This document shows positions 18,001 through 48,000 of a stretch of DNA of 50,378 nucleotides, piece after piece. The position numbers and the translations under genes were made by a program. A model generated the notes under the pieces. The model saw only the letters and a program-made list of their open reading frames with translations, did not search any database and had not been told where the DNA came from. The stretch is from Elusimicrobiota bacterium (GTDB taxonomy: Bacteria > Elusimicrobiota > Elusimicrobia > F11). The stretch lies in the NCBI GenBank assembly GCA_043732015.1, contig JAYTIE010000261.1, positions 1 through 50,378 on the forward strand, read 5' to 3'. The number at the start of each line of letters is the position of its first letter. Position 1 is the stretch's first letter.

Positions 18001-21000
18001 CGGCGGTGCTTGTCCCTCAGTTCGTCCATTGCGCGTTCCGGGCCCAGCGTGACGATGCGCCACTCGAAGGTATCCTTGCCGTCCGGCCCCTTGACCTGAA
18101 CGGGGCGGCGCATGCCGAGAACGCCGTCGAACGCGGGACCGAACGCCATTTTGGGATCCGTGTTCTGGTTGAAGAAATCCAGATTATAAGGACCGGCCTC
18201 GCCTTTCAGCGCCGCCGCTTTCAGCGCGTCCGGGTAGAAATTGTTTGTTTCCCGCGCATAGAGATGTTCCAGATCGTCGCCGACATTGATGACGCCCAGT
18301 TCCCGCAGGTGATCGTAGTCGTAGGTCAGCTTTTCCAGGATTCCGGACTCGATAACCGAGGCAACCCAGCCGGAAAGTCCCGTCCCGGAAAAGTCAGGGA
18401 AGGTCTCCGTTACGGATTTTCCGTCGGATCCGGGCCACTTCGGCGTAAACGTCATCGTGATCATCGTCGTGTCCGCGGACCGCTTCGTCGTGATGTCCAT
18501 GTACGTTCCCTTGTACACGCCATCCTTGATGTTCTGAGCGCGAGAAATCATTTGCGTCTTCTGGACGAAATCCCAGATGGGGCCGGAGCTGTCCATGGGA
18601 GCCCGGACCGAAAGAGGACTATGGAAGGCGGCGACGGTGCCGTCTGTCCGGGATTCGACCGCGCCAATGGGGCCTTTCTCGTAGCGAATCTTCCTGTCCT
18701 TCACCGGATCGGTGAAGAAAACCTTTCGGTACTGAGCGCCACGCTGATCCAGCCCTTCGATCGAGGCGATGGTTCCGTCTTCCCACAGTCCGTATTTGAG
18801 AGTTTCCGTCTTGATCAAGCGGGCCGTCGCCCGTTCCTCCGGAGAAAGTTTGTCGAACGCGGCCGCCATTTCGCCGGGGCGGACAGCGGCGGCGCGCAGG
18901 TCTTCCCACGAGTTCAACGGATCGCTTCCATCACCCTTCACGATGAATCCATAGACCTGCGTGACAGCAACCCCGATCTGGCGGAGAGTAAAGTCACGCT
19001 CGCGCACCGACCTCTTGTGCGCGAAGCGGGCGGGCACCGAACCGCTCATATCCACTTCCTTCAAAAGATCGCGGAATGCCCGGCCGAAATCGGGGTCCTT
19101 GAGTTGACGTTCGTTCTTGATGGTCGGAAAAAATTTGTTGATGCTCGGGTCCGTCACTTTCTTGATGGACCCGTCGGGCTCCCGGTCATTGAAGACCCAC
19201 ATCGAATAGGATTCTCTCTTCCCGATCATTTCATGCGGAGCGACCCGGATTCCGCCGGGACCAAACACCAGCACCTGATTTCGGCTCATGAGTTGATCGA
19301 TCGTGGTGACCTCTTTCTGGTTGGCCTCGGGAATCGGTTCTCCGTTGGGCCCCTTCACAACCAGATACCGGAGATCGCCCTTCGCCACCGCTTTCGAGAT
19401 ATAGCTCGGCGCATCGCGGTAGATGAAATCGTGCGTTGTGATCGCGGTCCACTTGTCTTTAATCTTTACCTGGATCTGAACGCGGCCCGCATCCGCCCAG
19501 TCCAGCACCTGCTCCCCGAGATGCACTTCGAGTCCTTTGGCGGCCGCTCCTTCATAGGCGGTTCCGTCGAAATTCAGGAGCGCCATGTCGAGATCCGTGT
19601 CCAGCCGGGCCTCGACGGCGCCATGCGCCGTCGCCAGCTCCCGGTTGTAAGCGGTCTGCGCCTTCAGCAGGCCGTAAGCCAGCGCGGCCTCTCCGGAGAA
19701 AACCTTCAATCCGCCAGCGGCCATGATCCGGCGTCCGGCCTGAGCTGAGCCCGGAGGGAAAAGCCCTTCCTGCTTTTTTGGCTCGAGAACATAGACTTCG
19801 AGACCGAGGCGCTTCGCGACGATGTCCACTTTCTGATTCTTCGCATGCCCGAACTGAACCAGCTCCTCCCAGGTGATGACCTTGCCGTCGTTGCGAGGAT
19901 CCACGAGGACCACCCACGACTTTCCGTCGACGTCACGGAGCTGAATCAGCTGATCTGCGGTGATGACAAAAGGTTTTCCATCGGGACCCAGGGCCGGGAT
20001 TACGTCCTGGTTCACCAGGTGCTGGCGCACCGGATGTTCGGAGCCGCGCGGATCCGGGTCGATGGGTAGCTTCAGCTTCTTTCCATCCATCGTGATTTCC
20101 ACACCCGCCGGGAATGACGGAGGCAACACGCCGGCGCCAGGGAAGTCGGGTTCCGCAGGAAGGGTCTTACGCTGGGTGAAGAGCGCACCGCCGGTGGTGA
20201 TGCCCGTTCCGGTATCACGAATAACCGGATTCCGGCTCGACATGTTCGGACTTTTTGTTTCTGCAAGAGGCGGCAGTTGGCCAGCACGCACGCCAAAATT
20301 GATTTCCCCCGCCGCGTTGGCAACGGGGTTTCGCCCGCCCGCGACAATGCCGGGATAGGCGTCGGCAATGAGCGAGCCATCTTCCTTGGTCGATCCCATC
20401 GTGTTGAATCCGAATCCGGTCTGGACCCCAAATGCTGATTTTCCATCGGGTGTCACGGCGTAAGGGCGGCGGCCATCCTTCAGCCGTCCCAGCGACGCCT
20501 GAATTCGCATGACGGCAAGCGCTTCAGCGCGCAGCGTGGCGGCGTCGGTGCGAAGATTGACGTCCGCGTTTTCCCGGAACCACTTCTCCGTTGGGGGATT
20601 GATCTCGAGGATCGCCGCCAGCTCCAGCTTCAATGCGACCACTTCCGCGGTCCACTCGAACGAGATGATCGAATCCGGCCCGCCCAACTTCAAATCTTTC
20701 CGGTTGGCGACAAAATCGTAACCGAGCAGCCGCTTCTCTCCGTCGCGGACCCCGTGTTCTTTGTCCATCTCCTTCAGCATTAGCACCACTTCGGTGATCG
20801 GCATGACCGGCGTATTCCCCGTAACAAGGCGGTTCAGCCCCACCATGCTGAAGAACCAGACCTGGTCCGTCGGATAGCGGTTCATTTCCTTCGTGAGATC
20901 GGTGCGGTCGATGGCGGCATTCGGACGGTCGGGATCGCGGTAGGTACCCGCGTAGAAACGGTGGGCCTTCGCGTTCCACATGTTGTCCATCGCGAACTTC

Positions 21001-24000
21001 TGGGCCCGGGCGGCGGCGGCCGAATATTTGGCGTCGCCAAGCAGGGTGGAAGCGGAGTTCAGAAGCAGAATGGCATCACCATGGTGCTCGAGCGTGAAAT
21101 GGTTCGCGCGGTCCTGCGTGCCGAATTTCTGGGACTTCTCATCTTCAACCAGCTTGCCGTCCTTCTCAATCATTCTTCCCCAGGGGCCGTTCCGGATGCC
21201 GCCCTCGGCGCTCTGCATGATCAGCGCGTACTCGGCGACTTCGCGGAGATGCCCGATCAGGGCGGCGCGCTTGGGGTGATCCTTGGGCATGCGCTGAAGG
21301 ATGTTGGAGAGCGCGATTCCATAATGAAGCACCTGTCCGGAATCGACGAAGTACTCCGCCGCGGCGCCCGTCTTGGCGTCAGCGCCGGTCATCATGACGC
21401 CCTTCTCGAACTTGACCCGCTGGCCCTTGCCGTTAAAATAGGTGACGTCGCCATTGCGCGGCCATTCAGTGCCGACGAGATCCAGAAGATTGATGGCCTT
21501 GTTGAGATCCGCGGCTCTCCCCGTCGTTCCCAGGAATACCGCGGTGATGGACGTGTCGTATAGATAGGCAATCCCGGTCTTATCCGTGGAGCTAAATGGA
21601 TATTTATTTTCCTTGGGGAACGCGTCATTCACGTTCTTGTAGGACGAATTCCGTGTGCGGGTCAGTTCGTCATCCACAGGACGGGGATCGGAACGGTCTT
21701 CCTCGTCAACCCCGGGCTGTTTTGCCTTCCCAGGGACTGTCCCGATATTTTCCTTCGGCTCGACGCGCCCCTTGTCCGTTTCGAAAAGAGCTTCCTTGGG
21801 AAGGCCGTGTTCGCCGGTCTGCCAGTAAAGATCGCGCCATGAGTAGGGACTTTTCGGCTCGTTGATGCCATTGCCGTGCATGGGGAGTTGTGGATTGAGC
21901 ATGCGCCATTGATCGCCGAAATTCCGGATCCGGGTGGCGCCGTCGTTCAGATTAAGGAGAACGGTGGAAGACAGGAGTCCATCGGGAGCGGCCCAGGACA
22001 GCTCAGTGGAATGATCGAATTTCGACCCGGTGGGCGGCGCGTACTTCCGGGGAACGCCGCGGAAAATTTCCACAGGAATCTTTCCCCGGTTCAAGTCCAG
22101 CGGGATCCCGGCCAGTTCGCCAGTCAGGGCGGCTTTGTTGTCCCGAATGCGCGCGTTGCGGAGAATCCCGCGCGTCGTTTCCAGTTTGGCCACATCCCCG
22201 GTGACAATTTCAAAACGGCTCGGGCCTTCCGCCTTCCCGGTCTTCACAAAAATCCGGATGCTGAATGAACGCCCTTCTTTCTCTCGAAGCGCCAGAAGGG
22301 ACGGAAGCTGTTCGGGGTTCAGAAGCTGGCCCGTCGGGCCAAGGCTGATTCCTTTCCTGGCCAGGGTTGCGATCAACGCCTGGCGTTCTGCAGGATCGTC
22401 TTCCCGGCTGCTCGCCAATTCGTAGACGACGTTCGTCCGGTTCGCCACGAGGAATTCAGATACGTCTTCGGAGGTCGCGAAACGAAGCGGGCTGCCTTTG
22501 GAATTCACGATCTCCCACGAGTCGGTATAGACCGCCATCGCGAATGTATCGGAATCGACTATCTTCTGGACTTCCGCGTGGCGCGCGCCGATCTGTTCAT
22601 TGGCCTTGGCGCGATTCGCCAACTCGCGCACATCCGCGACGCCCTTGGTCGCCTTCTGAGTTTCCTTGCCCAGACGTTCCTCTATGACGCCAGGGATTCC
22701 CGGCACCTTGCCTTCGCCGACAGCCGACGCGTGACGTCTTTCTTCATCCGGTGTCAGCACACGCCGGGGATCGCGCGTATCGCCGTATGCCGCTTTCTGC
22801 AAAAGGGACAGCGCCGCGCGCTGCGGATTGAAGATGTCGCGGCGCTTTTCGCGGGGCTGAAGGTCTTTGAGGTCGGGATTGTCAGGGAGGAGACCAGGTT
22901 CCTTTGTGTCCTTGCCCTTCTCCTTTTCATTTTCCTGAACGACTGGCGCGTTACCACCGGGCCCGTTGAGATTCTGGAAGACATTGTTCAAGGTAAAGAA
23001 GGCAAGAACGCCACCGAGGATGGCCAGAATCGCCAGCCACTTATAGGACCATCCGCCCGGGCCCAACAGGCCAAGGAGACGGCGGCCGGCGGGCGGTCCA
23101 CGGCCATTCGGCGTAATCACGACGGGCGTCGTCGGCCCGTTGGCATCGGACGAGGAAACTTCTTCTGCCCCAGTGTTCGCGGGCGGCGTTGCAGGGGGCG
23201 TGACCGGTGCCATCGCGACAGGATCGTTGGCGACCACAGCGGCGACACCTTCCACGATCACGTTGTTCAGTGTCAAAAGAGGATTCTGTTCGACCACATT
23301 GAACGGAGAGGTGATCGCCGAGGCAATCGCACCGAGTTCATCGGAAATGGCGTCCATTCCAATCAGCGCTTCCAGAGAGACCACCGGGACGGGCGGCTCC
23401 GCGGACGCCTGCGGCGCTGTCAGTTCTGATTTCTTGAATTCGAGTTCGGTCTGACCGGCGGGGACCCCTTTGGTCACCGTGAGGGTCACGCGACCCATTT
23501 CAAGACCCGGGTCACGGCCCCCCTGCAGATTCCGCGGAAGCGTTTCGACGACCGCCGAGTCTCCCTCGTTCAGTGTCAGCGTGACCGAACCCGGTCTGTC
23601 CTGCCAATCGGACACCGACAGCGAATCGTCCTTTCCGATGACGATCACTCGAAACCGGCCCTGGCGTGGAAACGAAACCGAGAACGTCTGGCGGCCCGCC
23701 TGCTCGGCGGTGCGCGGTTCCAAGGTGGTGACCGCCGAGGCGACGGCGAGAACGGGCTGCGCGCGGGCAACGATCCAGGGCGCGGGTGTGTCGCTGGTGT
23801 AGGTTGTCTTCTGCCGGATCAAACGGTCCAGGAGCGGCAGATTCCCGCGCGGCGCGAGCTGCCACAGGTTCATGCCTTCGGGGAGATTCGCTTCAGCAAC
23901 GGTCTCGTAGCGCGGAACGTTTTTCTTGGTCAGCCGGACCCGCATCCATTCCGCCTGGTTGATGCGGACATAGTAGGCATGGTCCGGTCCGGTTCCGAAA

Positions 24001-27041: not shown

Positions 27042-30000
27042 TTACGCCTGGGAAGCGATCAACGCGAACTTCTTCATGTCGAGGAATTCTGTGAGGTTGA
27101 GGTTAACGGCCTGAGCGCCGTCGGAGAGGATGAAAAGAATGGCCAGACGGTCCGGCATTTCCGAACTCAGCGTCTGTAATATGGCATTCGCGTTCTCTGG
27201 GAGAATGGCACCCTGCGACACCATGAACCGGACAAAGGGCGCCTTGCTGCCATCCTTGAGACGCATTAGTTCCCCGGCCGCAATGTCCGCGGATTCGGGC
27301 AGAGACGCCCAGGTCTTGACGCCGAAGGAGAATCCGAGATCGGCGGCGGCCAGCGCGGCAGCGAGGTCATCAACAGAAATGGATTCGTTGTCGGTTTCGA
27401 GCCGGACTTCGACCTCGAAGCGACGGTCGCCCATCTGTCCATTCAGCGCGCGGACTTTCCTGACGATATCGTTGATTGAGGACCCGGCGGGGGTCAAAAT
27501 TATTTTCTCGAACAGATCTCCCTTGTTGGTTTCTTTGATCGCGTTTTCCACCGACGTGGGCTTCTTCTTGTTGTAAGCGAGATCGACGCCTTCCATAACC
27601 GCTTGCAACGATTGATCACGGAGTCCGTTCAACTGTCCCTGGAATTCACCGATGTCGGCGGACGGCCGGTCGAACGCGGTCCCAACGCCGAGCGGCGCCT
27701 CTTCCGGAAATCCATTGATGATGTTAATCGCTTCGAGCAGTTCCTCGGCAGACCGGTCGGCGACTGGTTTCGATGCGATCGAATACAGCCGCGCGACTGA
27801 TTTTCCCCGGGAAATAAGGGTTTCATCCTGGGACGGTGGCGGCATAAGGTTTGTCGGGAGCGGCACGATGCGCTTCGTCCCGCCTGACGTCGCGGCGCGC
27901 GCAATGGCGGCGACCGCCGTGAACAGGCGAGCGCGAAATTTGTAGGCAAGAATGAGAACAAACGAGGCGATCGCAACCAAGATCAGGATCGGGTTGAAGT
28001 GAGCGGAAACCACCGCCTGTCCTAGGCCTTCCAACGGAGCGGCCTGCGCTCCGGACGCGCCGAAGAGAATCACAAGCAAAGCGAGGAGCCCGGTGTTACG
28101 AACCGTTGAACCGACAGGCGTCCGGCTCGCTGTGCGAGCCGGCGGCGGTGTGCGCGTCTCGTCTTTCTCACGCCGTTCGGCCACAGTTTTCGGGGCCGGT
28201 TCCTGTTTTCCAATCGGCTTCGCGGCGTCCGCCACGTCATGTCCAATCAAGTCCCGCATTTTCGTGAGGACATCCTGATCCGGGTTCGGGAGGTCTTTCA
28301 GTTCGCCATAAACAATGGTCAGGAGACGCCTGGCTTCACGCATGTTCTTGCTGCGGGAATAAAGATCGGCCGCCAGATAGAGCACCTTCGCGCGCGCGAG
28401 ACGCTCTTCCGCCGTCCACTCGAAATCATTGTTCACGAGCGCGTCCAGAATCGCGAACGCGTAGTTGTCGAATTGTCCCTGTTTGGAGAGCCCGTTGATG
28501 ACGTCGAATAATTGTTTCGTGTTTGTGATCGCCACGCCGCCGATCATGACGGCGGCCAGGCCGGTGGCGCCCGCCGCGTTGACCGTGGTCACCGGCAGCG
28601 TGACCGGCGCCGTTTCCTCCGGCTCCGTTGGAAGCGGCGTGGTGCTCTCAGGCGCGGCGGGACGCGGATTGGCGCGGCCCGGAGTGTCGGAAGCAGGCCC
28701 ACGGCCTCGAATAATCAGGAATATCCGGCGAAGGTAGATCGAGAAGATTCTCTCTCCCCACACGTCGATCATCGACAGTGCGGCCGACCAGAGGGAATTG
28801 ACCTGCGAGGAACGGATCCGGTCTCCCGCCGTCGTGCGCCCATAGTCTTCTTCCTTCACGAGCTTTTTCATGCGGCCTGCGAAGACGAACCGGTCCACCA
28901 GCCATGAAATCATTGCTCCCAGGTTCATGATGATGACGCCGACAAGAATGATGAGCAACGTTCCAAACACGAAGTCGGCCAACGGCATCGGTACGACGCG
29001 ATCGCCGATGTTGTAGGAAACAACGCCCGAGATCGGCACGATGCCGAGCCAAAGCGATGCGACGAAGCCCAGAATCGTGTTTCGCGTGAGAATCGTGGCG
29101 TAGCGGGCGCGTGTCTCTTCCCGTCCCGCCAGCCAGGAGATTGATCCACGAAGGATTTTGTCGAGCGGCTTGATCAGGTTGGGGACCTTCTGGCCCCGAA
29201 CGTTGAGACCCGTCAGCACGCTGAACAACCAGAGGCCGACGTTAATCAACGTACGGCCGATGAAGAAGGCCATCCACGAGCCGATCGTGAACAGGAAGAA
29301 TTGATCCATCGTCAGCACGCCCAGCGCCAGCAACGTTGAAGTGATGAAGACGGAAATCGAATTCGGCGAGAAATGGCCTCCCTTCGCCGCGCGCGGCAGC
29401 GCCTTGGCCAGAACGTAAAACCCGCTGATGATCGCGATCGCAAGTCCGGCGTACACGCTCGCGCCCGGCAGAATTCCATAGGCCACAAAGATCAGGCCGC
29501 TGATCAGGACGCCACTGATGAGTCCCAATGGCTTGAACATCCAGTGAAGAACGCCTTTGCGTCCGATCACGTTTTCATTCACATAGTTCGCGAGCAGGAG
29601 CCCGGAGATCACGAGCAGCGGCAGATAAAGCAAAACCACGTTCAACACGTCGAGGTTCATGAGGGCCGCGTAGTAGAAGCCCATGTAGATGAGACCCGAA
29701 ACAGCCTGTTCCGCGAACGCCATCCGCGCCATCTTGAAGCGGCCCGCCATCGACGGATTGGCCATCTGTTCCTGGAAGTACTGCCACGAATTGTCGATGG
29801 TCAGAACCGGCGGCGCCGATGGGTTGAAGGAGTAGTTCCAGTTGAGGCCAAGAACCAGCCCCTGGTTCATCGCCGCGTTCTCGGTGTTGACGCCGCCCGC
29901 CCACACCGTAATTCCCGTCCACCATTCGCTGAGCCACTTGGCCGGACCGGTAATGGGACCGGTGAGGCGGATGGCGCGAATCATTCCGTGCACCGCGAGC

Positions 30001-33000
30001 ACGAGCATGGCGAGGCTGCCGTAGAGGAACCAGACCGCATCGATACCGACGAACGACGTCCAGTTCAGAAGAATCAGCATTCCCATCAATGTGATGTTCG
30101 CCATGATGAGCGGGGACAGCAGGTAATACTCCTCGCCGTCACCTCGGCTTTCCTTGTCATAGAAGGAGATGGGCGCGTGGATATAGATGATCCGGATGAA
30201 CGTGCTGGCGAGAAGTTGCAGGAGACCCATCACCCAGCGCCAGCGCGCGGCGTTAAGCTGATAGGACGGACCGCCTTCGCGCATCTTGCGATAGAGAAGA
30301 TTCGACATGCGGCGCCACATCATGACGCCGATATCGCGCTCCGTCTGCGCAACGGCGAGCGACGATCCATAGTCTTCGCTCTGGAACAGGAGATTGATCC
30401 AGGCGCCAACGGAACCGTAGGCGTTGTCCCAGTTGGAATACCAGGTTCCAATCCGGTCCCGGAGACGTCGCGTAAGGGGCTTCGTGGGGTACAGCGGATC
30501 CATCGACAGGCGGACCGGCAACTTCGTCATACCCTCGATTGACTCACGGAATTCCCAACCGGGCGCGAGCGCTTCCGTGTTGTAAACCGCGAGCAGCGCG
30601 CGTTGGATGGTGGACATTCCGCCTTCACCATATTTCGGATTGAGCGAGAAGTCGCCGCCAGTCTGGGGCCCGAGCTTTGTGTCGCGGTCCGGGAAGATGG
30701 AGCCAAGACTCTTGTCTCCCATGATGTCCATTTCATCCCGAAGTTCTTCATAGGGGTCGTCGCTGACGCCGTTTCGGTCCTTTACGGCAAGAATGTTCGC
30801 CTGATCAAATTTCAGATTGGAGCTCTGAAGGAACAGGTAGGAGACGCCCTGCATGGCGACCGCTTTCGCCATGAAGTTTCCGGCCACTTTGACGCCCGAC
30901 GCGATGGGCTCGAGCCCCGCCGCCTGGCGCATCTCCGGTGTGGTCTGTTCGATCGGCACGAGCTGGCCGGCCACCGCCACCTGCTCGCCCTCTCCAGCGA
31001 TGAAGTTCATGAGGTCAATCAACTTCTGACGCTGCCGCATTTCGTTGTCAACCATTCGGGGATCCTGCCCGGCCGTGAGAACGAAGTTGAACGGAATCAA
31101 ATACTTCTTTGCGAAAAGGGCCGGATTCCTGTCCTTCTCCGCGCGCCAGACCTTCACGCCCTCCACCATGGAGATGGCCGTGTCATAGGCCGAGCCGCCC
31201 TTTGAAGTGGAAAGAACGTCGATCATCCATCGGCGGGTGCGGTGAGCCAGGACAAGGCGCCGCCGGTCCTCATCCGTCTGGCTCGGACGCCGCAGGCTGA
31301 ATGGCTGCGGCGTATTCGGATTCCAGAGCTGAATGTCCGGGTCATAAAGCGGGAAGTCTGCGCTGATTTCCAGTTCATGCAACTCATTGAACAATCTGGA
31401 AATCACGGCGTCGGCCATCTTCTCATTGAGAGCTTTGATCGGCCATCCTCGGAACAACTGGCCCGGAATCCCGTATCCGATGGCGGCCCGCTCCAGGAGC
31501 TCGCTGTTCGCATAGGCCCACAGATACAGCGCCCGGGACTTCGCCTGGCGATATCGGGTCCAGTTTTCCATCACGAGTTTCGTGGTGGAGTCGGCGTTTG
31601 GATTTCCATTCACATAGGCGGCAGCAAGGAACGCCGGTGAAGCGAGCGAGTCCAGACCCGCCATGACCGTGAGCGCGAATCCGTCCCGGGGCTCCCGATT
31701 GACTGCGCGATAAGCCTTCTGGATGAGCGCGATCACAACGAACACAGCGACGTTGACGGCCAGGATTCCAACCGACCACTGGGCGATGAGAATGAGCGGG
31801 CTTGCAGTAAGAAGAAACAGCCAGCCAGCGCCGGCCAGCAGGCCGACCGAGAAAAGCGAGTAGCCAATCATCGAGGGAACAGTCCGCAGCTTGAACGGAG
31901 TCGTGATGAGTTCCTTGTAGAGAATCACGATGCCCGCGAAGAATGTCAGCAGAATCTTGTTCGCGTAACGGCTCAGGATGAGCGTGAGGATCAGGCCCAT
32001 GCCGGCCACCATCATCCGAACCTCATGGTTGAAGTAAAAGGAGATCCAAAACTGGATCAGAAGGCCCGTCGCGATCACGTGCTTCATCGGAATCCACCGG
32101 TAATCCGCCAGAGACGGAAGCCCGAGTTTCAGCCCCTTGACTCCCTTCAGCCCCAGTTCGCGCCCGACGAATCCGAGGAAATTAATCAGCGCCGCGGAAA
32201 CGATGCCGGCGCCAATTCCAAGCCCCAGCGACAGATGAAGCGTCAGTCCCTGGCCCAGCACGAGCCACGTGGTGACGCCAGCGCCCGTGACGAGAAAATT
32301 CCCGACCGTTCCCCAGGTCAGCTTCTTGTAAAGGCCCGGGAGAAGCGCCGCGACCGCAAACCCAGCGACACTCGCGAATATTCCGATGGATTGCGCGGAT
32401 GTGTAGGACGCATAGAAAAAGGGCCAGACGTTCATCCCCAGCGGGACGGCGATGGCGAAGAACAGGAGAAGTCGCTGATGGAACATGATGGTACCCATCA
32501 TTCCCGACCACGACGCCGCGAACGAGAACATCCATTTCAACGTGTTCCCGATCAAGGACTGGTCCCACACGAGGCGGACGATCGCCTGGGCGGCGAGCGC
32601 GCCCGAGAACGCAAACTGAATGATTCCCATGTCCAGCGTCGGCGGAGAAATGAACATGATGCCGATGATGGAAGCGATCAACGACAGTCCGCTGCCCATG
32701 CGCGCGAGCCGGCGGCGGGACAGCAGCCGCACCACGCCGGGCGTCAGCGTCGAAAGATTGGGCGAGCGATAGGCGAGAAGCCGGAAAACCACGCCGGCCG
32801 CGAGGCCTCCCATCAACAGACGGGTTCCCCACACGTTCTGCGCCATCGAGATGGCGGTGGGAATCGTCTCAAGCCAGGGATCCACGCCGAACGTCATGAC
32901 GCCATGGAACGCGGCGATAAGCAGAAGCGCCCAGAACACATAGAAGAAAACGTGCATCGACAACTTGAGCATGGAGTGGATGGAACCGGTGCCGAGAGAA

Positions 33001-36000
33001 CTCAGCGGCTCGGTGCGTTTCCATTTGTTGAGGCTCTTCTCATAGGTGTCGCCATCGAACGTGAACACGCCCCCCTCTCCCTTCACCATGCCAACGCGGT
33101 TCAGCGTGGTTTCGAGCGATGGCGTGTTCTCCGCGGTCAGTTGTCCGCGGGTCCGATTCCAGAACGTCGGCCGGGGATTCATCCCCACGCGGACGGCCAG
33201 GCGCGCCCGGAGTTCTTCGCGGATTTCATAGAGAAAAATTTCACGGTCATCGTAGACGAGCTGATTGACCTCTTCCGGGTTCTCGCCTTTGCCAAGCTGG
33301 ATCAGGCGTTTCGCGAAGTCATCCTGAATGCCGTACACGAGCGCGCGGATCTCCGCCTGGGTCGGCGTGGCTTCCGCTGGAGCGCCGGGAACGGGCGTCG
33401 TGTCATGGAACGCCCGCAACGTGAGGTAAGTGATCAGAAGGTTGAAGAGGAACAGAGATTCCGCCGACGCTTTGTTGACGCCGCCTTCCTGCTTGAGAAC
33501 GATCGAAAAATCTCCGAACCAGTGATCGACGCCGAGGATATCGGTGGCGAAATCGTTGAGCCAGCCGCGATAGACCTGCTGGGGATCCCGTCCGTTCAGC
33601 GCCGCGATCATTTCCGGCGGGACTTCCCAGTTCAGGAACTGACTGCGGTAACCGTCGATCTTCGCGATGGTGCGGCCATTGATGGTGATCCGCATGCCGC
33701 GGAAGGCGAGCCACGTCAGGATCGTCCAGAAGAAGAGAAGCGCGTATTTCACGATGATGACCTTGATCGTGATGGAGACGGAATTGACGTTGTTCCACAT
33801 CACATTCCAGAGCCGCTGAACGGGCTGGTCGACGATTTTCTCCGACAGGTCCAGCGTCGGATCGTTCAATACCGCATTCTGCCCCGCCGCGAGCTGGGCC
33901 TTCGCCTGATTGCCAAGGACGATTGGAGAGAGCGGGTTGTTGCCGTTTTCCGCGAGATTGACCGCGAGCGTTACGAACGGCTGGCCCTCGAAGCGACGGG
34001 GCGTCTTTTCCAGCTCCGCGGTCCGGTCGGGCTGAAGCGCGCTGGGCGCCTGGGCGTCGCCGATCATGAGCGGAGGGGGTGTTGTTTCGGACGTCGGGAA
34101 AATGATCTGGCCTTCACCCGTCGAAATTCCAGTTTTAAGGGGAACGGAATTCGCGTCGATGCCCACGATCTCGGGGAACAGTCCGTTCTGAAGCGGGATG
34201 CTATTCAGCGACATGCGCGCGAGCGCGGCGGCGTTGTCATGATGAATCTCGGAAGCCGTCATCAACAGAAGCGCCGTCATTTCGGGCGAAAGTCCTTCCC
34301 GGACGCTGGTCGGCATGCCCCAGGTGAGCCCGTAGAGCCGCCGGCCGTTGGGGCCCTGAACCCAGACGCCAAAGACGCTGAGAGCCTCGTCGAGGTCATG
34401 GCGAAGAACCTCATCGGAATATCCCCCCATCCGTTTCTTGGCGAGGATCATCAGCATCGACGACTCGGCTTCCGTTCGAAGCTCTTCCACGATCAACGAC
34501 ACGTCGCTGGGATTGGGAAGCTGGTCGAGTCCGCGGTAATCGCGCTGCTCACGAAGGCGCGCGGGCGTGAGGAATCCGTGCGGGCGATCGACAACATATT
34601 TCCGGAGCCACTCCTCCTGCTTCTTGACCGCCAGATCAATCTCGGCGGCATTCCGCTCAATGGTGGCCTGCATGACGGGATTTCCGATGGCCTGCGCCTT
34701 CATCTGATTCAGCACGGCCTGGAAGTTCTTCAGATAGAAATAGGCCTTCACGTTGTCGACGGTTAGATAGCCGTCCGGTGGCCGGTACGCATTTGGAAGT
34801 CCAGCGACGATGAGCGGCTCGCCCGGTTCCCAGTGAACGAATCCGTTCTTTCCGTTCACCTTGGAGCGATAGTCCAGTCCGTGGCGGAACATGCGGAAAA
34901 AAAGCTGGAGGCCGCGCTCGTCACCGGTCTTCGCCCAGTAGCGAAGTCCGACGTCGGCGAACGCGAACTGTGGGAGGATCTTCTTCTCGGCCATACCGGG
35001 GACGTTGTATTCGATGTTTCTCTCTTCGGGCGAACCGTGCATGACGTTGTAAGCGCTGAAGGCGGGCTCGCGTCCCTCTTTAAGCCGATTCCAGATCGGA
35101 AGGAAGGCCTGCGTCGCGGCCGCCTCATCCTTCGTGTCGGTGACAGCGGCGAAATAAAGCTGGAGGCGTTCGGCGTAGGCGAGGTCCGAGACCTCATTGC
35201 CGGTCTGCGTCGCGGGCAAGCCGGTGGGATTGGTCAGCGCCTTGCCCAGGATCTGATCGACGATCACCGGCGACGAGTTTGCGGCAGTGCCTCGGTTAGG
35301 CATCGAGCCCTTCACGGCCGCGTCCGACGCTTTTGGAACGGGGTTCCGCTGATGGCCGTAGATCGGGAAATGCGCCGCGATGGCGTCCTTGCGGCCAGCC
35401 GCGTCAAGCAGCGCAACATCCACGGTTTTGAGATAAGGCGCGATGAACGGATCTGTCACGCCAAGATGGCGAAGCAGCGCGTTGTAGGCGTTGGCCGGGA
35501 TGTTTTTTCGCGGAAGGATGCCGTTGTGGAGGCGCGTATAGATAAAGGTATAGGGATTGTAGAGCGTGACGTACGGCGCGGAGATGATCTCCCCATTTTC
35601 GATGTAGATCTCGTAACGGATGTGGACCTCGAGCTTAACGCCCTGGTATCCGTTCCCGATGGACTGCTGCACGACGGCCTGAAGATTGGAGCTGTCGACA
35701 AGAAGAGCGGACTGCCATCCCGTCGGACTGTCGTACATGGCGAAAGGCTGGGTGAGCGCGGCATCCGGCGCGGCGACGAAACGCACCGTCACCGGGCGAA
35801 CCTGATTTCCTTCCCGCACATTGAACGTGCGCTCCATGAGTTCGCCCCACACCCACACCTCGGAAATCCGGCTGTCGGCAGGTCCGTACTCGATCACGGT
35901 GTTCCCGCGAGAGCCGCGCGTGACGACGACCGGGCCCGCAGTTTTCGAAATCTTCTTTTGACCATCGACCTCGACCACGGAACGTCCCAGCGGCGTGCCT

Positions 36001-39000
36001 TCCACCGTGGCGTCACCGGGCAGGCGGAACCGGCGCAGGTCCGACACCGCGTCGATGTTTCCTTCGTTGTTCTCAAGGGTCACGGAGGTGATCTTCGTAA
36101 CGTCGAGACCGAGGAGAAGAAGGTCCGCGACGGGAACGATAACGATATCGCTTCCGCTCGGATGATCCACAGCCCGAACGTTGTCGCGCATCGGAACCAT
36201 GCTGGCCTGCACTACCTTGTCCCCATTCTTGATCGAGTACGCGGCGGACGCGGCTTCTTCGGTCGAGTAGAACGATCCGTTGCCGTCCTTTCCGATCACG
36301 ACCATGTTGGTGCCATCCGTGAAAATCATACGAAGGCCGTCGCGTTTTCCCGATTTGACGGACACCGCGACGAAGGCCGTGTCGGCGAAATTGCTGGCAG
36401 GAAGTTTGATATTGGTGCTGGCGGCGTGGACGTTGCGGAGCGCCATGGTGTCTTCCCGCGGAAAATAGATGACGGACTCGGCGTTCTCAATGCTCTTCGT
36501 AATGGACACCACCCGGCCACCCGCGTCAAAGACGCGGGTTTGCGGACGGCCCAGCGTGTCGCCGAGAATCGGGTGCTTCGACTCAAACGTCCGCCGCACC
36601 AGCGGACCGCTTGCCTCATCAGGCATGAGCGGATCGAAGTCGAGCGCCTTGCCGCTCTTGCTCTTTTCAACCGTGCGATACGAGGGCGCAACCATCTCGG
36701 CCGGACGATCCGGATTTGCGGTTGCAACAACATAGCTTTGCATCTCGGACTCGCCGGCGATCCAGAGCTGGAGATCGTTGTCCCACTGGGATCCCGTCAT
36801 GAAAAGGCGGTAATGCTCGGCGCGAATGCCGTCGTTGCGCGGCCGGATGACCTGGTAGACCGCGACCGCGCGGCCCTTCGGATCAACTTCCTGCACTTCC
36901 TGACTGGCGTTTTCGTTGAGTCCGACGACAAGTCGCTTCTCATTAAGAACGAACACGCGTCCATTCGTGTGGGTGGCGGGAGCCTGGTCCATAAGGAAGG
37001 CGCCGCCGACGGACCGAACGATGGCGCGCGCCCGTGTATCCCACTGCGCCGTGGCCAAAGGTCCCTGCGCCGCGCCCTGCTTCAGCGTCTTGCCCTCGAG
37101 AACCGGCGCTCCGAAGGGCATGCGAAGCTCGCCCGCCGCCGTCGGCACGTCAATCGTGGCCAAGGCGCTGAGCGTTCCATCCTGCAAAGTGAACTGGCCT
37201 GTGGGCGTCTTGCGGTAGGAGGTTCGCCCGATCTCGCGTCCGATGACGATTCTCCCCAGCGGCGTGGCGACGGGTTCGTGACTGACGACGGTCAGAATCT
37301 CAGGTGTTTCAATTTCGCGGACCGGATCCACCGAGTCGCCGTAGAAATTATTGAGGTTGCCCGCGACCGGACCCGAGCGGATTATTTTCCACTCATGAAC
37401 CTGACCCGCGGGCAGAACCGGAAGCTGTTTCCCGGCGTCCCGCGCGATGATGGCGCTGACCGTGTCCGGCAGCGGCGCGCTGGACGAAGCGGCGTCGCGC
37501 GTCGCGCCGGCGAGAACCTGCGTTTCGGTGAGTCCGACAAATCGATCGTCCGGGTCGAGCTCGATATCGACATTGTGACGAACCTTCATCGTCATCTTTC
37601 CGTTCGCCGGATCCTTGTAGACGGTCGCGGCGCGTAGGTCGAACTCTTCGCCGGTCCGCTCGAATAGGGCCCGCTCTTTTCCGACGTCGCGGAAAACGAA
37701 TTCATTCCGGTCCGGATGGAAGGTCGAGTGGAGGAACCGGCCTTCGTAAGTCGCGCTGTATTCGTTGTGCGTGACCGACACCACGGCGCCGCCGGGCTGA
37801 ACTTCCCGGTGCATCTCTTTCACCGCGTAGGTGACGCGTCCGGCTTTGTCCACGCCGGTCTTGTCCATCGTCTTGACGAGGAAGCCCCCGACCCGAATCT
37901 CGATGTGACCGCTGACCGTCCGGCCCGTCTTCACATTGAAGAATTGCTGGCTGTGGTTTTCGACCCAGTCCGCGCCCCGGCTGCGCTCCACGAGATAGGC
38001 GTCCGGATTTTCCCAGACCGGAACGTTGTACTTTTCCTGGTACTGGTAGCCGTCGCGGTTGGTCAGCGAGACCACGCCCGGCCGATCCGGAGCGGAGGTT
38101 CTTTCCATGCGGGTCTTCAGCGCGCCTTCCTTGTAACGCGCCTCGACGCGTTCGAAGAAGTTTTTGACAGTCGGAGCGGTTCCATCCGTGGTCAACCGGG
38201 TGGCGTCCCGAACGATCAGATCGCGTGATTCGAAAATATTGTGAGGCCGGGTCGCCATCTGGCCGTTCTGGAAGCGGACGAACACGAGGTTCTTTCCGGT
38301 AATCCGCGCGTCACTGCTGAGCGGAAGTTCCGCGTTCTTAAGTAGCACGCCGTTAATCCGAATGTCTTCGCCGCGCAACTCGCCTTCGACGGCGCCGAGA
38401 ATGTCCTGGAACCGGAGAAAGCGGACAGTCTGGGCGCCCTGCCCCTCGGTGATCGCGGCGACCGTCAGGCCGCGGGAATCCAGGCGGTACCCCTCGGTGA
38501 CTGGCGTTTGGCGGCCAAAACGGACGTCCGTCGGCGTTGGAAGAATCGGAGAGGCGCCGAAAACGCTCGGAAACCCCCGGTGATTGGCGCTTGGACCGAT
38601 CTGCGCTTTCCGGTAGGCCGCCAGGTCCCGAAGACTCTGGCTGGTTCCGTAGAACAACGCATAGCGTGTGGTTTTTGTCTTCCAGGATTCCGTGGCGGAA
38701 ATTTCGGCGAGTTCCGCGATGGCGGCGTCGCGGCGACCCGCGGTCGTGGCGGGGTCCCGGACTTCCCGGTATAGATTCTGAATCAGTTCATCGAGCTCGA
38801 GGTAGATGCGTTCGAAGTTGTTGATACCGGAAGTGACTTCGCTGTAGCCGCGCGTGACCGCCCACTCAATCGCGCCCGAGATGCGCTGCCGCGCTGCCGT
38901 TAGAGCGGAGATCTGTGCCGTGTTGTCCCCGACGGCGCCGCGGAGACGGCCGATTTCTGCGTCGATGCCCGTCAGCGACTGACGGGCGCGGGCCACGCCG

Positions 39001-42000
39001 CCCTTGCTGGCGACCACGTTGAAACGTCCCGTGACGGGATCGCGGAAGTGATTGCTCTCCTGGCCGAAGCGGATGATATTCTGAGCGGCGTTGAGCCGTT
39101 CGCGAATCCCCGCGATGCGGGCCTCTACCATCAGCTGCCCCACGAGCGGGCCAAATGGCTGAATTGTCGGAATTCCGGAGATCGCTAGCTCCTGCTCGGT
39201 CGGGATCTCGGCTTTCTCCATCGCCTGGTTCAGCTTCGCGCGGTGGTCGGCCAGCCACCACAGGTCAATTCGAGCCTGCCGGTAGTCTTCCATCAGCTGC
39301 TTCTGACGGGGCGTTCCGAAAGTTTCTTTCTGAAGTTCAGTCCGGATTTCGCGGAGAACAGGATAGTCCTCATGGCGTTCACCTGTAACGGTTTCCGCCA
39401 GCCACGCGCGCCGAAGGCTGCTCGCGTAGTCGAGCAACTTCTGGCGGCCAACACCCTGCGCGAAGCGCGCCTCCAGTTCCATTTCGCGAATCAGATTTTC
39501 AGCCATCAACCGGTCGGCGGGATCGGTGAGCTGCTGAGCCCGCGGAGTCACCTTGCCCAGATAACCCGACGGCGCATCCACCGGTATTTCCATTACCATT
39601 CCGGAAACGCGGCCGAGCAGCACGAGCTGGCCCATCATCCGTTTTGTAGATGAAAAAGGAACTTCGCTCATTCCGGGGCTGGTCAAAATCTGGTTCCAAT
39701 TCTCGGGATTGGACCGAACCGAGGCGCCCTCCGGCGGAATAACGATCAGAAGGACGGTCCCTCCGGGAATAGGCGAAATTAAATACGCATACCCCTTGTC
39801 TCCGCGGAACCAGCGAATACCGGCGGCGACCTCAGTCTCGGTTGGCGCCCCAGTCCGGACGCGGTCATAGGGAACCTTGAACGCCATGGCCGGAAGAGAG
39901 TCGGCCCTCTGAAAACGTCGGCCTATTTCACCGTTCGGAAGAATTTCAACGCCGGCAAGAAATGTCTTCCGGCCATCAATGTCGTTCAGAAGTTCGCGCA
40001 CCGCGCGGCGCACCGACAGCGACTGGCGGGCGAGATCTTCCGCCTTCTCGAGTCGAAACGGCGTTCCCGAGCCATGTGCGAAGACGGCGGGCGTTCCGGC
40101 GACACGACCGGCCTCCTGCTGTGCCGCCCCTTTCAGACCGGCCCAGTCGATGAGACGTCCGGTGGTCGGGTCGACAGGCGCGGCGAGGTCGTGACCCTGA
40201 CGCAGCGCGAGAAGATAGGTCATCGCGGTACGCGCGGTTCCGTCTGGCGCCGAAAAATTCAGGAACGGAAGGGTGGATCCCACGGCCGGCTGCCAAGATG
40301 CGGCATCGAAACGATCCACCGCGCCGGTTTTGATCTGATAGGAATAGGCCATGCCGCGGCCCTTGGCTGCGGGCATCAGCGGAAGTGAAAAGAGAAGGCG
40401 AGTGAGCCGGTCGGCCCCGGTTCGTGCGTCCGCCGCTTCCCGTCTGAGGGCGTCCGCCTCCGCGTTCGTGGTGTTCTTTGCTTCGTTGTCCAGCCATGCG
40501 GCGCCCCATCGAAGACCATTGGTGCGGCTCACATACCAGTCGGCCACGATAAGATCCCGGGGTTGCGCCTGAAGATTCTGGATGAGCCGGCGAACTCGAA
40601 TGATTGCCTCGCTAACGGTGATTTGATCGACGCGCGCGAAGATCTCAACCAGTGCGTCCGGTCCCAGCTCGGATAGCGCCCACGGATCGAGGTCTTCAGC
40701 GTTCTGAAAGCCGGCCGAGTCCTTCGTCCCGGCCGTGAAACCGCGGCCGTCGTAGTGGGCGCTAACGAGGCGGCGGGCGGCCGCGGAATACGCATCCATA
40801 TATCTGTCCTCGCCGGTCGCCAACGCAAAAGACCGAACAAGACCGGTAAAGGTGATCTGGAACTCGCCGGTCGGCCCCTGGCGCGCCGTGCTGAACATCA
40901 GCTCCCCGGTTTCGGGATCCTGCATGTCGACGAGGAAATCCATCGCCGAACGGGCCATCGAAAAGAGTTCGGTGCGTTCTGCGCCCGGCTCCGAAAGCGC
41001 CCACAGCATCATCGCGGTCTTGGCCAGTTGAATGGTTTCTCCGGCGCGGACCTTCTGTTCGAACGCTCTGTGCATTTCGTACGGCTTTTTTCCGGGAACG
41101 ACGGGGCCGGGCGTGGCGAAGAAGGAAACGACAGGGCCGCCATCATGTTTGGGAATGCGGCGAACGAGCTGCAGGAATTCTTTTCGGGCTTCTTCAACCG
41201 ACTTGCCGCCGATCTGCTGGCGGCCGTTCAACGCCACGTCGAATGTCATCAGCACGTTCGCAGTATCTGCGTTTCCGAGCGTCGAGATGGGAACGGCACC
41301 CGCGTTCATCTTGTCGAGAGACGCCTGGAGCTCCTTGACGCGAGCCTGAACGATGGCGGAATCCAGATAGGCTTTCGGGAGCGTGGCATCAAGGGAGCCG
41401 AGTTCCAGGCGCCGCTGATCGATGGGAATTGCCGGGATGCCCGTGACGTAGGGAATTCCCTTCCGCGCCATGTCGGGATTTCCGATGGGAGGCGCGCGGG
41501 GAAGCGGAGCTGCCTGCTGAGCCGCCGGAGAAAACTCGTTCCGCAGCGACGAGAACGTCGGCAACTGGGGCATGAAGATCGTTCCCGTGATCGCGAGGAT
41601 GATTGCGGCGACGGTTTCCTTCCGCTGGCGATGCAGAACCCGGCTCACGGCCTGAACGACGGCAAATCCGAGCGGACGCCAGATGACCGAGGTGACGACG
41701 AACGCGGCGATGGCGCCTAAAACGGTGAAAGTGATGGTGGGAGCATTGGCGAGTCCAGCGGCCGTCAGCATCAGGGCCGCGGCGACGACGATCGTGTACC
41801 AGAACCGCGTCCGAATATCGAGACGCGGCGCAGTGAGAGGTGCGCCCGTATCGCTCCGCGCCGCCCGGTTCGAGCGAACGGCCCAACGGACCAGAAGTAA
41901 CGCGGAGAGAAAAATCGATGCCGCGATGAGGACCATCGTGACGACACCAACGCTCATGATGCCAAACGGAGAACTGGCACCCAGAGAGAAGAAGGCGAAT

Positions 42001-45000: not shown

Positions 45001-48000
45001 AGTTCATACTCGCCGACGCCGACACGGTTAAGGACAAGTGCATTCTCCGGAACCACAAGGGGTCCGTCTTCGATGGCGCCCGGAGGCGCCACTTCCATCT
45101 CATAAAAAATCGGGAAGTTGAGATTATCCAGTGGCTTTCCGAAAGACGAAGCGCCCGCTGCGGCGTTGGCGAGCCCACCGCCTCCGGACGGACTTCCCGA
45201 CGTGGCACCGCCAACCGTGCCGAATCCCGTGGCGGGACCCTCCGGTAGAACAGCGACGACCGTCTTGGTTCCCCCTTTCGCCACGACCGTGCGACCGTCG
45301 CTCGTGAAGGTGAGGACATTCCGGGTCGTGGTTATAAGGTAGTTGGCGCTCAACGATTGTGAAACCAGCTCCTGCTTCTGGCTCGACTGGTCGCTCGCAA
45401 GGGCCTCGCGTCCGATCGCTTCGATGCGGAGAGGCTCATTCGAAACCACTCCGTCACGAACCGCGCTCACCTTGATGGATTTGACTCCCTCAAGGCGGAA
45501 GGAAAAATTATTGAGATCGCTAACATTGATCGTATCGGTCTGAAAAACGCTCCCGTCCTCCAGCGTCACAGTCAACTGCACCTGCGTGACATCGGGCGCG
45601 TTGACGATGCGAAGCTCCGCAGACGGGTTTGTGAAACTCGCTTTGAAAGCCGACGAGAAGGTGACGGTCCCCGAGTCGCTGAAAAACGATGTGACGGCCT
45701 CCGCCACCGCGGTCCCGGCCTGGCTGACGACGTCCATGGCCTTCGCACCGGACGGCACGGCGGTCCCCAGGGGACTGCTGGCCACAAGGACGTCATCCAG
45801 AAGGCTCTGGTCCAGGAACGTCATGTCGGGAGAAGCGAAACGCGCCGCCCCATGCCCGACAAAGATCGCGTAGCGCCCGATAAAGTTGGAGAGGGCGTCG
45901 GCGTTGGCGCCTTCGATGACGGCGGCGGCCAGAGGCGAGAGACTGGGCGCCACGGCGTCGGACAAAGCGTCGAGACTGGAGCGCGGCGCTTCCGATCCGT
46001 CTTTCGGGACAAGGAGGCGGAGGTTCTCGGCATCGGCTGGTTTTCCGCCTGACTCAATTTCAATTTTCAGCTTGTTGGCGGTAACGTCTTTTTCAATGAC
46101 CAGGTCCCCGCCGCGCCCGGAATTCACACGGGAACGGGAAATCTCAGTGTCGTTCAGCATCTGAATGACGATGACACGCACATTCGCCGGAACGCCCGCG
46201 ACAACGATGCCCTTGGCAGCGAACGGAACCCTCGCTTCATACTGGCCCTCGGCCGCTCGACGAAGCTCAACCTGATCGAAACCTTTATCGGACGGTGGCG
46301 CGACATCCATATCAACATTGACGGGAATCTCAATGGCCCCGATCTGCCGGGCCTTCGGCAGTCCATAAACAACTTTTCCCGGAAGTCCGGTGGGCGGATT
46401 GAGCGTGCTGTAGCCTCTCGTTTCACAGATATCCCGCCACCACTGAGGCGCCTGCTCATAGGGAATTACGCGGCCCGGGCTGCTGTCGACCTCCTGATAA
46501 TAAATGGGGATGTGTTCCTGCCCGGGGAGGATGACGTCTTCAACCGCCCTGGTTGCAATCGGAAATTGAATGGGCATGACGATCATGTCTGCCAGGTGGA
46601 GATCGCGCAGACCAAGCCCGGCGGACGCCAGTACACTATCGACCTGACGAACGTTGAATGGAACATCGGTGCGCGAACCGGCGATGAAAGGTGTGGTCAA
46701 TGGATTTGAAATTACGTCTCCCAGCATTTCATCGAGATTGCTGCCGAGGAGATCGGTATTGAAAAAATAAGCGCCTTTCGACCCCAGCACACTCATGCTC
46801 ATGGGCTGAGGGCGCCGCTGTTCGCTGGGCGGCGCTACTTCTCCCGTTCCAACCCGGATCGAGGGAGAGAGGCCGTCAACGCGCTGGCCACCTCGGGTCA
46901 CGGACAAAATTATTTCCGCCGTTCCTTCCGCAAATCGCGGAAGAAGCACTTCCCCGTTGACCACCCTTGCTTGATAGCGGAGCGACTCGCGTCCCGCAGC
47001 GTCCTTGCCAATGACCGCCACCTCGGTGCCGTTCGGAAGACCGGTGATGGTTCCATTGGTCACGGCCGGCGGAATGCGGGCTCTCAGCACCGCACCGCGC
47101 ACGGCATCGTCCGCCAGGCCGACGCGTTCAAAGGCAATAACATCCCCCTCGTTCGCACGCGCTTCATCCACCTTGAGCGTTTCACCGGGAGCGGTGATTG
47201 CCAACGGCGCCGTTTTGGGGAGCTCTTTCTGGGAAATCGAACCCGCGTTCCCTCCGGTGTCGAATCTCGGCCCCGGCTTTCTGATTTTTAATCGGGTGGT
47301 GTCGAAAACGCGGGGATCATGGAGAGCAGGTGTTTCTTCTTCCGCCGGCTGGTTCTTGAATGGCGATTCGTTCTGCGGCGGCACGGTTTTCTCGGAGGTG
47401 GTACCAAAAAGAATCACGGGCGGCTGTGACAGCGGCGTCGCAGGCCGGATCTCGATCCGGTCCGCTCCGGCGGCGATGGGGACGGTAATGGAATTGGAAG
47501 CGTCCGCTTTCACCGGAACGGGGTCTCGCAACCAGCGGCCGTTCGAAATCTGAACAACTTCCACGTTGGTGCCCTGCGGAATTCCCGTGATGACCGCCTG
47601 ATTGGTATTCGGCGTCACACCCGCAAAATAGACCCCGGGAACCGACTGGCCCATGACCTGGCCTTCCGATACCGGCAGACCGACGTTGTTGAGTGGAATG
47701 GGATCAAAAAAGGGCGATCCCCGGTGCACCGGCGTCGCATTAAATCCGGACATATCGACGCCTACGAAAATCAAGTCATTCGCCCATTCGTTCACCCAGG
47801 TGCCGAGCCCCAGCGCGTGCTCCTGGCTGAGCGCCGAATTCACGGCGACGGTACCCATGTTGTAGCCCGACACAATGGGAACGCTTCCCGACGCGGCGTC
47901 GTGCAAAAGATCCGTCGCTTCGACGACGATCGCGGGAGTCAAATCGTGAGAGACGCCGACGTGAGGCAGCATCATGGAAGAAGGAAGGTCCCGGCTTTCA

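Follow-up and report, generated by a model that had tools for sequence, protein, structure and literature searches.

A predicted cellulose-synthase-like glycosyltransferase domain between the membrane-spanning regions of a giant Elusimicrobiota protein

What kind of domain lies between the two membrane-spanning regions near the end of a giant protein encoded by an Elusimicrobiota bacterium (assembly GCA_043732015.1, contig JAYTIE010000261.1)? The stretch of DNA analyzed here, referred to as the window, is the complete public contig of 50,378 bp. It contains only two giant genes (referred to as A and B respectively), both on the minus strand and arranged in tandem in the same reading frame, with one TAA and ~130 nt between them (window 26910-27044). 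The original prediction, made from the letters of the sequence, took the domain in A to be a synthase-like domain, shorter and more diverged than an equivalent domain in B. Our analysis indicates that A aa ~6190-6680 is likely the catalytic domain of a very divergent and unannotated family within the GT-A "cellulose-synthase-like" superfamily of membrane-embedded glycosyltransferases (GTs), and that its relationship to the domain in B is at most a distant one.

Gene A (27042..50261; here and below, features are on the minus strand unless stated otherwise) encodes a 7739-aa protein from the publicly called ATG at 50261 to the stop codon TAA at 27042-27044, within a frame that is open over 27045-50282 (7746 aa counted from a TTG), and the database entry of its product (P0001, 7739 aa) is 100% identical. 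A hydropathy scan places a hydrophilic stretch of 495 aa (aa 6188-6682) between two clusters of transmembrane (TM) helices, which agrees with the ~500-aa hydrophilic domain between polytopic bundles that had originally been predicted. The N-side polytopic bundle comprises aa 5778-6187 (31722..32951), with a K/R-rich stretch (IQKAYRAVNREPRDG) after its last TM helix, and the C-side cluster comprises aa 6683-7119 (28926-30236). The three sequence strings quoted earlier for this domain are all present, namely GNFMAKAVAMQGVSYLFLQSSNLKFDQANI (aa 6468-6497, window 30792-30881), LFQSEDYGSSL (aa 6632-6642, window 30357-30389), and SYQLNAARWRWVMG (aa 6673-6686, window 30225-30266). The GC content of the domain at codon positions 1, 2, and 3 (0.60, 0.43, and 0.75 respectively) is that of a coding frame, and because of this and of the 65 homologous clusters described below, a chance resemblance or a non-coding artefact can be ruled out.

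These 65 clusters were found by an exhaustive HMMER search over 1.84 billion representatives, and their common core corresponds to A 6290-6775. The named family members come from Elusimicrobiota, Omnitrophota, and Verrucomicrobiota/Limisphaerales, and all are labelled "hypothetical" apart from one that carries a DUF6531 label. Most homologues are proteins of 1.4-7.5 thousand aa or fragments of such proteins, and in proteins of 4,000-7,700 aa from Elusimicrobiota, Omnitrophota, and Verrucomicrobiota the conserved unit sits near the C-terminus. The profile hidden Markov model (HMM) of the family matches A with an E-value of 1e-125, and the family-conserved region (A aa 6199-6808; 29859..31688) spans a helical subdomain, the predicted GT-A core, the interface helices, and the first TM helices; the same HMM also matches a protein of Ca. 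Obscuribacterium magneticum (E 1e-174). Word-indexed homologue searches with the A module, the B domain, and the 25-sequence family alignment returned nothing significant and missed even the window's own protein. As the exhaustive search found 65 clusters, a result of "no homologues" from a word-indexed search should not be trusted for giant TM-rich proteins. Two of the shorter members, P0004 (1658 aa; locus L020, 2572-14977) and P0041 (880 aa; locus L021, 5455-12643), have overlapping same-strand open reading frames (ORFs) of 2489 aa and 1531 aa respectively upstream, and probably represent parts of giant genes that frameshifts or gene calling have broken up, rather than stand-alone synthases.

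The sole close ortholog of A is P0002, from an Elusimicrobiota metagenome-assembled genome (MAG), with 36% identity in the module. The two proteins can be aligned only over A aa 4083-7103, the first 4000 aa being without alignment, and the best block between them is the module consisting of TM bundle, domain, and TM bundle (A 5670-7041, 31% identity), which is therefore, judging from sequence comparison, the constrained part of these giant proteins. The N-side TM bundle is kept in P0002 and is not kept across the wider family. A and P0002 form a divergent subgroup that is 20-26% identical to the remaining family, and 22 columns are invariant among 25 aligned family sequences.

The evidence that carries the assignment of the A domain comes from its predicted fold. 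Two AlphaFold2 models were made, one of A 6180-6800 with the 25-sequence alignment (model 1) and one of A 6100-7135 with a different alignment (model 2), and both were searched against PDB with Foldseek. Model 1 has a predicted local distance difference test (pLDDT) score of 73.4 and a predicted template modelling score (pTM) of 0.77, and its Foldseek ranks 1-28 are exclusively membrane-embedded processive GT2 synthases, with probabilities of 0.91-1.00. The matches include soybean CesA3 (8vht, 2e-4) and CesA6, aspen CesA8, Phytophthora sojae Chs1 (7wjo, 3e-4), Saccharomyces ScChs1, Candida CaChs2, Chlorella-virus HAS, BcsA (4p00 and 4hg6), and barley CslF6. Model 2 is less confident (pLDDT 57), yet gives stronger matches, with BcsA 4p00 at 2e-6 and the same class throughout ranks 1-33, so that processive GT2 synthases are the only class in the top ranks for both models. 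Its alignments extend over 560-880 columns to whole synthase chains, with a TM-score of 0.49-0.52 normalised to Chlorella-virus HAS. No FKS1 entry (7xe4, 8jzn, and others) appears in the top 50 of either search. The earlier suggestion that the A domain is synthase-like is thus supported by structure prediction, although not by sequence searches.

The same rankings bear on whether the domain may be an active but non-processive membrane glycosyltransferase that, along the lines of GtrB, ArnC, DPMS, or PcManGT, would add sugar to polyprenyl phosphate, a lipid, or the giant protein itself instead of polymerising and exporting a glycan. Such a role would fit the presence of PcManGT (6yv7, E 0.07), ArnC (8vxh), and soluble GT-A enzymes at lower Foldseek ranks, the poor modelling of the channel-forming TM helices, and the absence of the Q of QxxRW that contacts the acceptor glycan. 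However, the top 28 and top 33 matches are all processive synthases, whose E-values are better by a factor of 100 to 10,000 than those of GT-A enzymes that are non-processive (soluble ones appear in the model 1 list only at E > 0.05), the alignments to processive synthases run through the interface and TM helices, and an RWxxG interface helix followed by a large TM bundle is a hallmark of the processive class. We therefore regard a non-processive enzyme as quite improbable.

A membrane-embedded processive synthase is also what the layout of the models resembles. In model 1, a helical subdomain (A aa 6230-6385; 31128..31595; model residues 51-206) that includes the invariant E6305 and Q6318 precedes a predicted GT-A (alpha/beta/alpha) catalytic core (A aa 6391-6670; 30273..31112), with strands and helices at model residues 212-490. 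After the core come the interface helices together with the TM bundle on the C-side (A aa 6672-7119; 28926..30269), a candidate translocation channel that is placed by hydropathy, the Foldseek alignments, and the helices of model 2, which are of low confidence here. Along model 1, a strand leads to K6473 at the N-terminus of a helix, a second strand leads to D-R-N, SED sits at the N-terminus of another helix, and a beta-hairpin ending in K.RE is followed by a long helix with RW..G..Q and by TM helices. As modelled here, this order matches that of KAG, DxD, TED on the finger helix, and QxxRW on the interface helix of BcsA and CesA, and the ED at a helix N-terminus, the hairpin, the amphipathic RWxxG helix, and the TM helices appear to be shared with GT2 synthases. 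In the predicted structure, the GT-A catalytic domain lies between TM segments and packs on amphipathic interface helices.

Conservation, scored in 25 and in 49 aligned family sequences, falls on these same elements. K6473 (30864..30866), the invariant Lys of "F.xK(A/S)xAM", is the proposed counterpart of the GT2 "KAG" lysine; its distance to the Asp of D-R-N is 24 residues in typical members, the same as the "KAG"-to-Asp spacing in CesA, and 29 in A itself. D6502-R6503-N6504 (30771..30779), right after a beta-strand, occupies the DxD position as D-x-N, the frequencies among the other members being 100% for D, 98% for R, and 87% for N. The best local alignment by hhalign between the family profile and a CesA sequence with 95% identity to 8VHZ is in itself weak (E 0.098), yet falls exactly where the fold assignment predicts: it pairs K..AM-22 residues-I-D-R with KKAGAMN...NVDC, that is, K6473 with "KKAGAMN" and D-R with "D-C(-D)". 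R6533 in "FPDRDT" (family "PGRGTTNT"; 30684..30686) and G6575-W6576 (family "VGTGWGN"; 30555..30560) are invariant, and by eye resemble "FPQRF" and "VGTGC" of CesA respectively. S6635-E6636-D6637 (30372..30380), also invariant, is the putative TED/ED counterpart, with model 1 helix 457-471 starting at SED. The beta-hairpin that precedes the interface helix ends with the invariant K6666-x-R6668-E6669 (30276..30287), and K6666 lies 16 residues before RW, a spacing that by inspection is as in CesA "FKGSAP...LRW".

The last of these elements, R6682-W6683-V-M-G6686-L-L-Q6689 (30216..30239), places RWxxGxxQ on the amphipathic interface helix (model 1 helix 493-513) and is the putative counterpart of QxxRWxxG without the Q. 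R6682, W6683, and G6686 are invariant and Q6689 is present in 87%, while the first RW of A (6680-6681) and Y6674-Q6675 are not conserved, P0002 reading "HYSINNARLRW" in this place. The element had previously been interpreted as a hybrid of the GT2 QxxRW and the GT48 Q.LSR..Y.LG motifs; what is conserved is the second RW followed by xxGxxQ, i.e., a GT2-type RWxxG. Likewise, the earlier argument that the motif residues are functional rather than a chance resemblance holds for SED and RW, which are invariant in the family, but not for YQ.

The possibility had also been raised that one of the two paralogs is catalytic and the other regulatory or degenerate. A retains 40 of the 58 columns that are at least 85% conserved, and every 100%-conserved column except Q6760, which belongs to the TM-helix motif "FNQ(V/I)LT.HGL". 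Since all family-invariant columns of the catalytic part are retained, the catalytic-site equivalents are intact, and nothing in the alignment suggests that A is a regulatory or dead copy. At aa 6760 (window 30003-30005), the Gln found in all other family members, P0002 among them, is replaced by Leu in A, and this could be a change of a channel-lining residue specific to A.

Several points weigh against the assignment of the A domain to this superfamily. The fold evidence consists of predicted models, of which model 1 has Foldseek TM-scores of just 0.25-0.35; pLDDT is 55-75 near SED-RW, and the TM part of model 2 has values of about 40-60. The canonical DxD is absent, with the second acidic residue missing family-wide, and the Q of QxxRW is replaced by A in gene A and by A, S, or V in the family. 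In addition, A departs from the family at 18 of the 58 highly conserved columns, including Q6760L. At the sequence level, Pfam gives no GT family for A or for 14 family members even at E <= 10, NCBIfam has no match to the entire A and B, PDB searches with the A module sequence and with the family profile found no match, and hhalign comparisons of the A family with GT48 and with CesA are non-significant. Genomic context is uninformative as well: the window holds two giant genes only, and the loci of two homologues (P0004 and P0041) have no polysaccharide genes, only fragmented giant genes and unrelated neighbours.

Some of these same features could be read as signs of a GT-A-fold pseudoenzyme, or of a structural or regulatory module that kept the fold and lost sugar transfer: D-R-N replaces DxD, the Q of QxxRW is missing, no GT profile recognizes any family member, and A has lost the otherwise universal Q6760. 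However, K, D, SED, and RW at the catalytic-site positions are invariant over three phyla at 22-36% pairwise identity, D-x-N is catalytically competent in FKS1 (PMC10499315), and no other part of the giant proteins is as well conserved as this module. A pseudoenzyme thus seems unlikely to us, and an active synthase remains the preferred reading.

In terms of established sequence families, A and the 14 family members searched do not fall into GT2 (Glycos_transf_2, Glyco_tranf_2_3, Cellulose_synt, or Chitin_synth), as no GT2 Pfam model matches any of them, and profile searches did not place the domain in an unrelated family either. Full-length A and B gave no Pfam match except HEAT repeats near the C-terminus of B. 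For GT48, hhalign of the family alignment with FKS1 and callose synthase (CalS) gave an off-register match with E 0.16, and an HMM built from FKS1 and CalS matched A with E about 1. Chained Smith-Waterman alignment of A with FKS1 under cheap gap extension reached z = 4-6, which we did not count as GT48 affinity because DRN and SED of A pair with non-equivalent positions in FKS1.

If the A domain is a divergent synthase, is it nevertheless the counterpart of the domain in B? The latter (B aa 7621-8420, counted from 27041; 1782..4181) cannot be aligned with the A domain. BLASTP of A against B gave no alignment outside the N-terminus, the A-family HMM matches B with E 0.078 in TM helices only, hhalign of the A family with the B domain gave E 0.074 over a single TM helix, and Smith-Waterman scores between the two domains, calibrated by shuffling, reach z = 1.0-1.6. 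Searched with phmmer, the B domain recognized none of the 65 homologues of A. The shared pattern SED...YQ....R...(R/W) is literally present in both, but is at chance level: the SED-RW block of A against the SED-YQ block of B gives z = 0.9, with 175 of 1000 shuffles scoring as high or higher. As the two domains do not align, the claim that the A domain is the shorter and diverged equivalent of that in B is not supported, and at the level of sequence it is largely refuted.

What can be said in favor of the A domain being a shortened and diverged paralog of the GT48-like domain in B, with SYQLNAARWRW as the QxxRW/Q.LSR..Y.LG hybrid, is that the architecture of TM bundle, hydrophilic domain, and TM bundle is analogous in A and B, that SED and a downstream YQ....R occur literally in both genes, that the TM helix paired by hhalign at E 0.074 is in each protein the first one to follow the catalytic domain ("FY..P....I....W..F.G"), and that A and B are true paralogs elsewhere, over the N-terminal ~570 aa (40% identity, E 3e-119). 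Against this stand the negative comparisons above, the failure of B to recognize any homologue of A, the lack of conservation of YQ in the ortholog and family of A, where the conserved RW is the second one, and the match of the A models to GT2 synthases with FKS1 outside the top 50. A paralogous origin of the two domains is thus very unlikely. Any relationship between the A and B domains goes no further than the superfamily, of which they would be independent members and not recent duplicates, with A being GT2-like by its predicted fold and B probably GT48-like by its motifs. Taken as a whole, what the original prediction observed was partly confirmed, and its interpretation was partly supported.

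Gene B (3..26912) is in the same frame as A and has its C-terminus cut by the contig end. Its frame is open from 27041 to the contig end (>9,000 aa), and the start is probably the GTG at 26912, 15 nt upstream of which is a GGAGG. A chain of colinear GT48-like motifs, together with FAMTSKAG, extends over window 1452-3848 (B aa 7732-8530). Within it, EYARDQLKQFINLLYMQKP resembles EA(E/R)RR(I/L)SFF..SL....P, MPVDWSNFIENL resembles P(V/D)EW..F(V/L), ELWINRRGYANFRT resembles (R/L)(I/L)WAS.R.QTL.(R/K)T, VSEDIAM...MDEYEQKG resembles (N/S)EDI(Y/F)AG...H.EY.Q.GKGRD, and QVEYQEILGRIY resembles GEQ.LSR..Y of FKS1 and CalS, while FAMTSKAG, downstream of these blocks, resembles the CesA gating loop FTVTSKA (FxVTxK). 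The FKS1 sequence for these comparisons was taken from PDB 7XE4; that of CalS is supported by its match to FKS1 at 9e-76. Window 3-640 (B aa ~8800-9013), after the C-side TM bundle of B, contains the HEAT repeats, which match Pfam HEAT_2 with an E-value of 9e-7.

The statistical support for these motifs is mixed. With hhalign, the B domain matches FKS1 and CalS at a modest E of 0.032, and chained Smith-Waterman alignment gives z = 5.3-5.8 against CalS, 2.9-3.8 against FKS1, and 0.2 against CesA. In block-wise tests, P is about 0.003-0.012 for three colinear blocks, which were picked after seeing the data, and some pairs of block and target are non-significant. A MAFFT alignment of B, FKS1, and CalS is consistent for the N-terminal motifs and gives the ED region a second, conflicting placement, so the residue mapping in B is uncertain. 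A PDB sequence search with the C-terminal 2000 aa of B found no match. No homologues of the B domain were found among the 65 homologues of A (phmmer), in 19 Elusimicrobiota loci (tblastn), or in metagenome scans with B alone or with the motif alignment of B, FKS1, and CalS, and the B domain is thus an orphan. GT48 is best known from fungi and plants, and it would be unusual for a bacterium to have a GT48-like enzyme. Going by its motifs, the B domain is probably a GT48-like member of the same superfamily as A, which is suggestive and not established.

The shared N-terminal domain of the two genes, which follows a signal-anchor helix, is located at window 48580-50252 in A (aa 11-566) and at 25269-26915 in B (aa 43-591), and carries conserved motifs that include QD(V/I)H.N.EAQ, EGAFG, AGG(F/Y)HT, and LFAGEKLF. 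It has no match in Pfam, NCBIfam, or PDB, and begins giant genes in 19 Elusimicrobiota MAG loci (L001-L019). The locus of Ca. Obscuribacterium magneticum (L001, 9788-9904) has the same layout as the window, with a giant gene ending in an A-type C-terminal module, then a giant gene starting with the shared N-terminal domain. Over gene A, there are also two antisense open frames of ~1,000 aa each on the plus strand (31641-34763 and 34767-37634), which are most likely by-products of high GC content and a long sense ORF and not genes.

How does the A domain compare with known membrane synthases? Similar to the processive GT2 synthases (BcsA, CesA/CslF6, chitin synthases, and Chlorella-virus HAS), it has a GT-A core, predicted in this case, between TM segments. 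It differs from them in having D-R-N instead of DxD, no Q corresponding to that of QxxRW, an extra helical subdomain of ~160 aa before the core, and no PilZ, zinc-finger, or other known regulatory domain. Moreover, GT2 synthases are enzymes of 500-1000 aa, whereas the A-type module is at the end of proteins of 4,000-8,000 aa. With GT48 (FKS1/GSC2 and callose synthases), A shares the superfamily fold (predicted in A), D-x-N in place of DxD, an ED motif, and a large GT domain flanked on both sides by polytopic TM regions, the motif likenesses being pattern matches and no proof of homology. FKS1 itself has a "cellulose synthase-like" fold (PMC10499315), with D-A-N at the DxD site and metal-independent catalysis (PMC10499315, PMC12715860). 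However, no sequence or profile comparison significantly links the A family to FKS1 or CalS, FKS1 is not its closest structural neighbour, and the colinear GT48-type motifs are found in B and not in A.

The hosts of the family, Elusimicrobiota, Omnitrophota, and Verrucomicrobiota, are phyla with giant proteins. Elusimicrobiota are known to be enriched in huge uncharacterised proteins (PMC11573180; West-Roberts et al. 2023, bioRxiv 10.1101/2023.11.21.568195), and the giant proteins of Omnitrophota and the Planctomycetota-Verrucomicrobiota-Chlamydiota (PVC) group are, similarly to A, multi-kiloresidue, multi-TM, and largely unannotated (bioRxiv 10.1101/2023.11.21.568195; bioRxiv 10.64898/2026.06.07.730766). 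Term searches of the latter two preprints retrieved SecA-like and dockerin domains, GT-B domains (starch synthase, GT group 1), and domains of sugar metabolism in such proteins, but no membrane-embedded GT-A synthase module. Based on the predicted structures, the A domain is best described as a new and highly divergent family in the cellulose-synthase-like GT-A superfamily, which unusually appears at the C-terminus of giant proteins.

What the analysis shows is that the family exists, how it is conserved, which fold it is predicted to have, and on which secondary-structure elements its invariant residues fall. For the most likely mechanism, residue roles, topology, processivity, donor and substrate, and product are taken by analogy from BcsA, CesA, Chs, HAS, and FKS1. 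The roles of D246 and D343 in BcsA (PMC10499315) and those of TED and ED in BcsA and FKS1 (PMC10499315, PMC12715860) have been described. By this analogy, the A domain would face the cytoplasm and bind a nucleotide-sugar, with K6473 and D6502-R-N contacting the donor and R6503 possibly replacing the metal. Catalysis would probably be metal-independent, as in FKS1, because the family has D-x-N with an adjacent invariant Arg instead of a metal-binding DxD. D6637 of SED, at the tip of the finger helix, would act as the catalytic base for inverting transfer, and W6683 of the RW on the interface helix would stack on the acceptor glycan at the entrance to a channel that the subsequent TM helices would form and through which the product would be extruded during synthesis.

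The huge proteins of Elusimicrobiota, Omnitrophota, and Verrucomicrobiota have almost no annotation, and in A and B, which together amount to ~16,700 aa, HEAT repeats are the sole significant match to Pfam or NCBIfam. The A domain offers a first hint at what one such family may do, as the best-conserved piece of this family appears, from its models, to be a cellulose-synthase-like catalytic and translocation module. Glycan synthesis is now a concrete and testable hypothesis for these proteins, with D6637, D6502, and W6683 as candidate key residues. Current profile libraries apparently miss this entire branch of the superfamily of GT-A membrane synthases, and structure prediction seems to be needed to recognize it. 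We further speculate, tentatively, that the C-terminal TM-GT-TM modules of PVC giant proteins constitute a new CAZy-level family of membrane glycan synthases, probably metal-independent, that the giant proteins may be self-contained machines for polysaccharide synthesis and export, and that this contig may pair two types of module in tandem, a GT2-like one in A and a bacterial relative of GT48 in B. The family-wide D-R-N, comparable to the DAN of FKS1, would mean that metal-independent catalysis in this superfamily also occurs in bacteria, and, if the GT48-like motifs of B hold, they would be relevant to how the beta-1,3-glucan synthases of fungi and plants originated.

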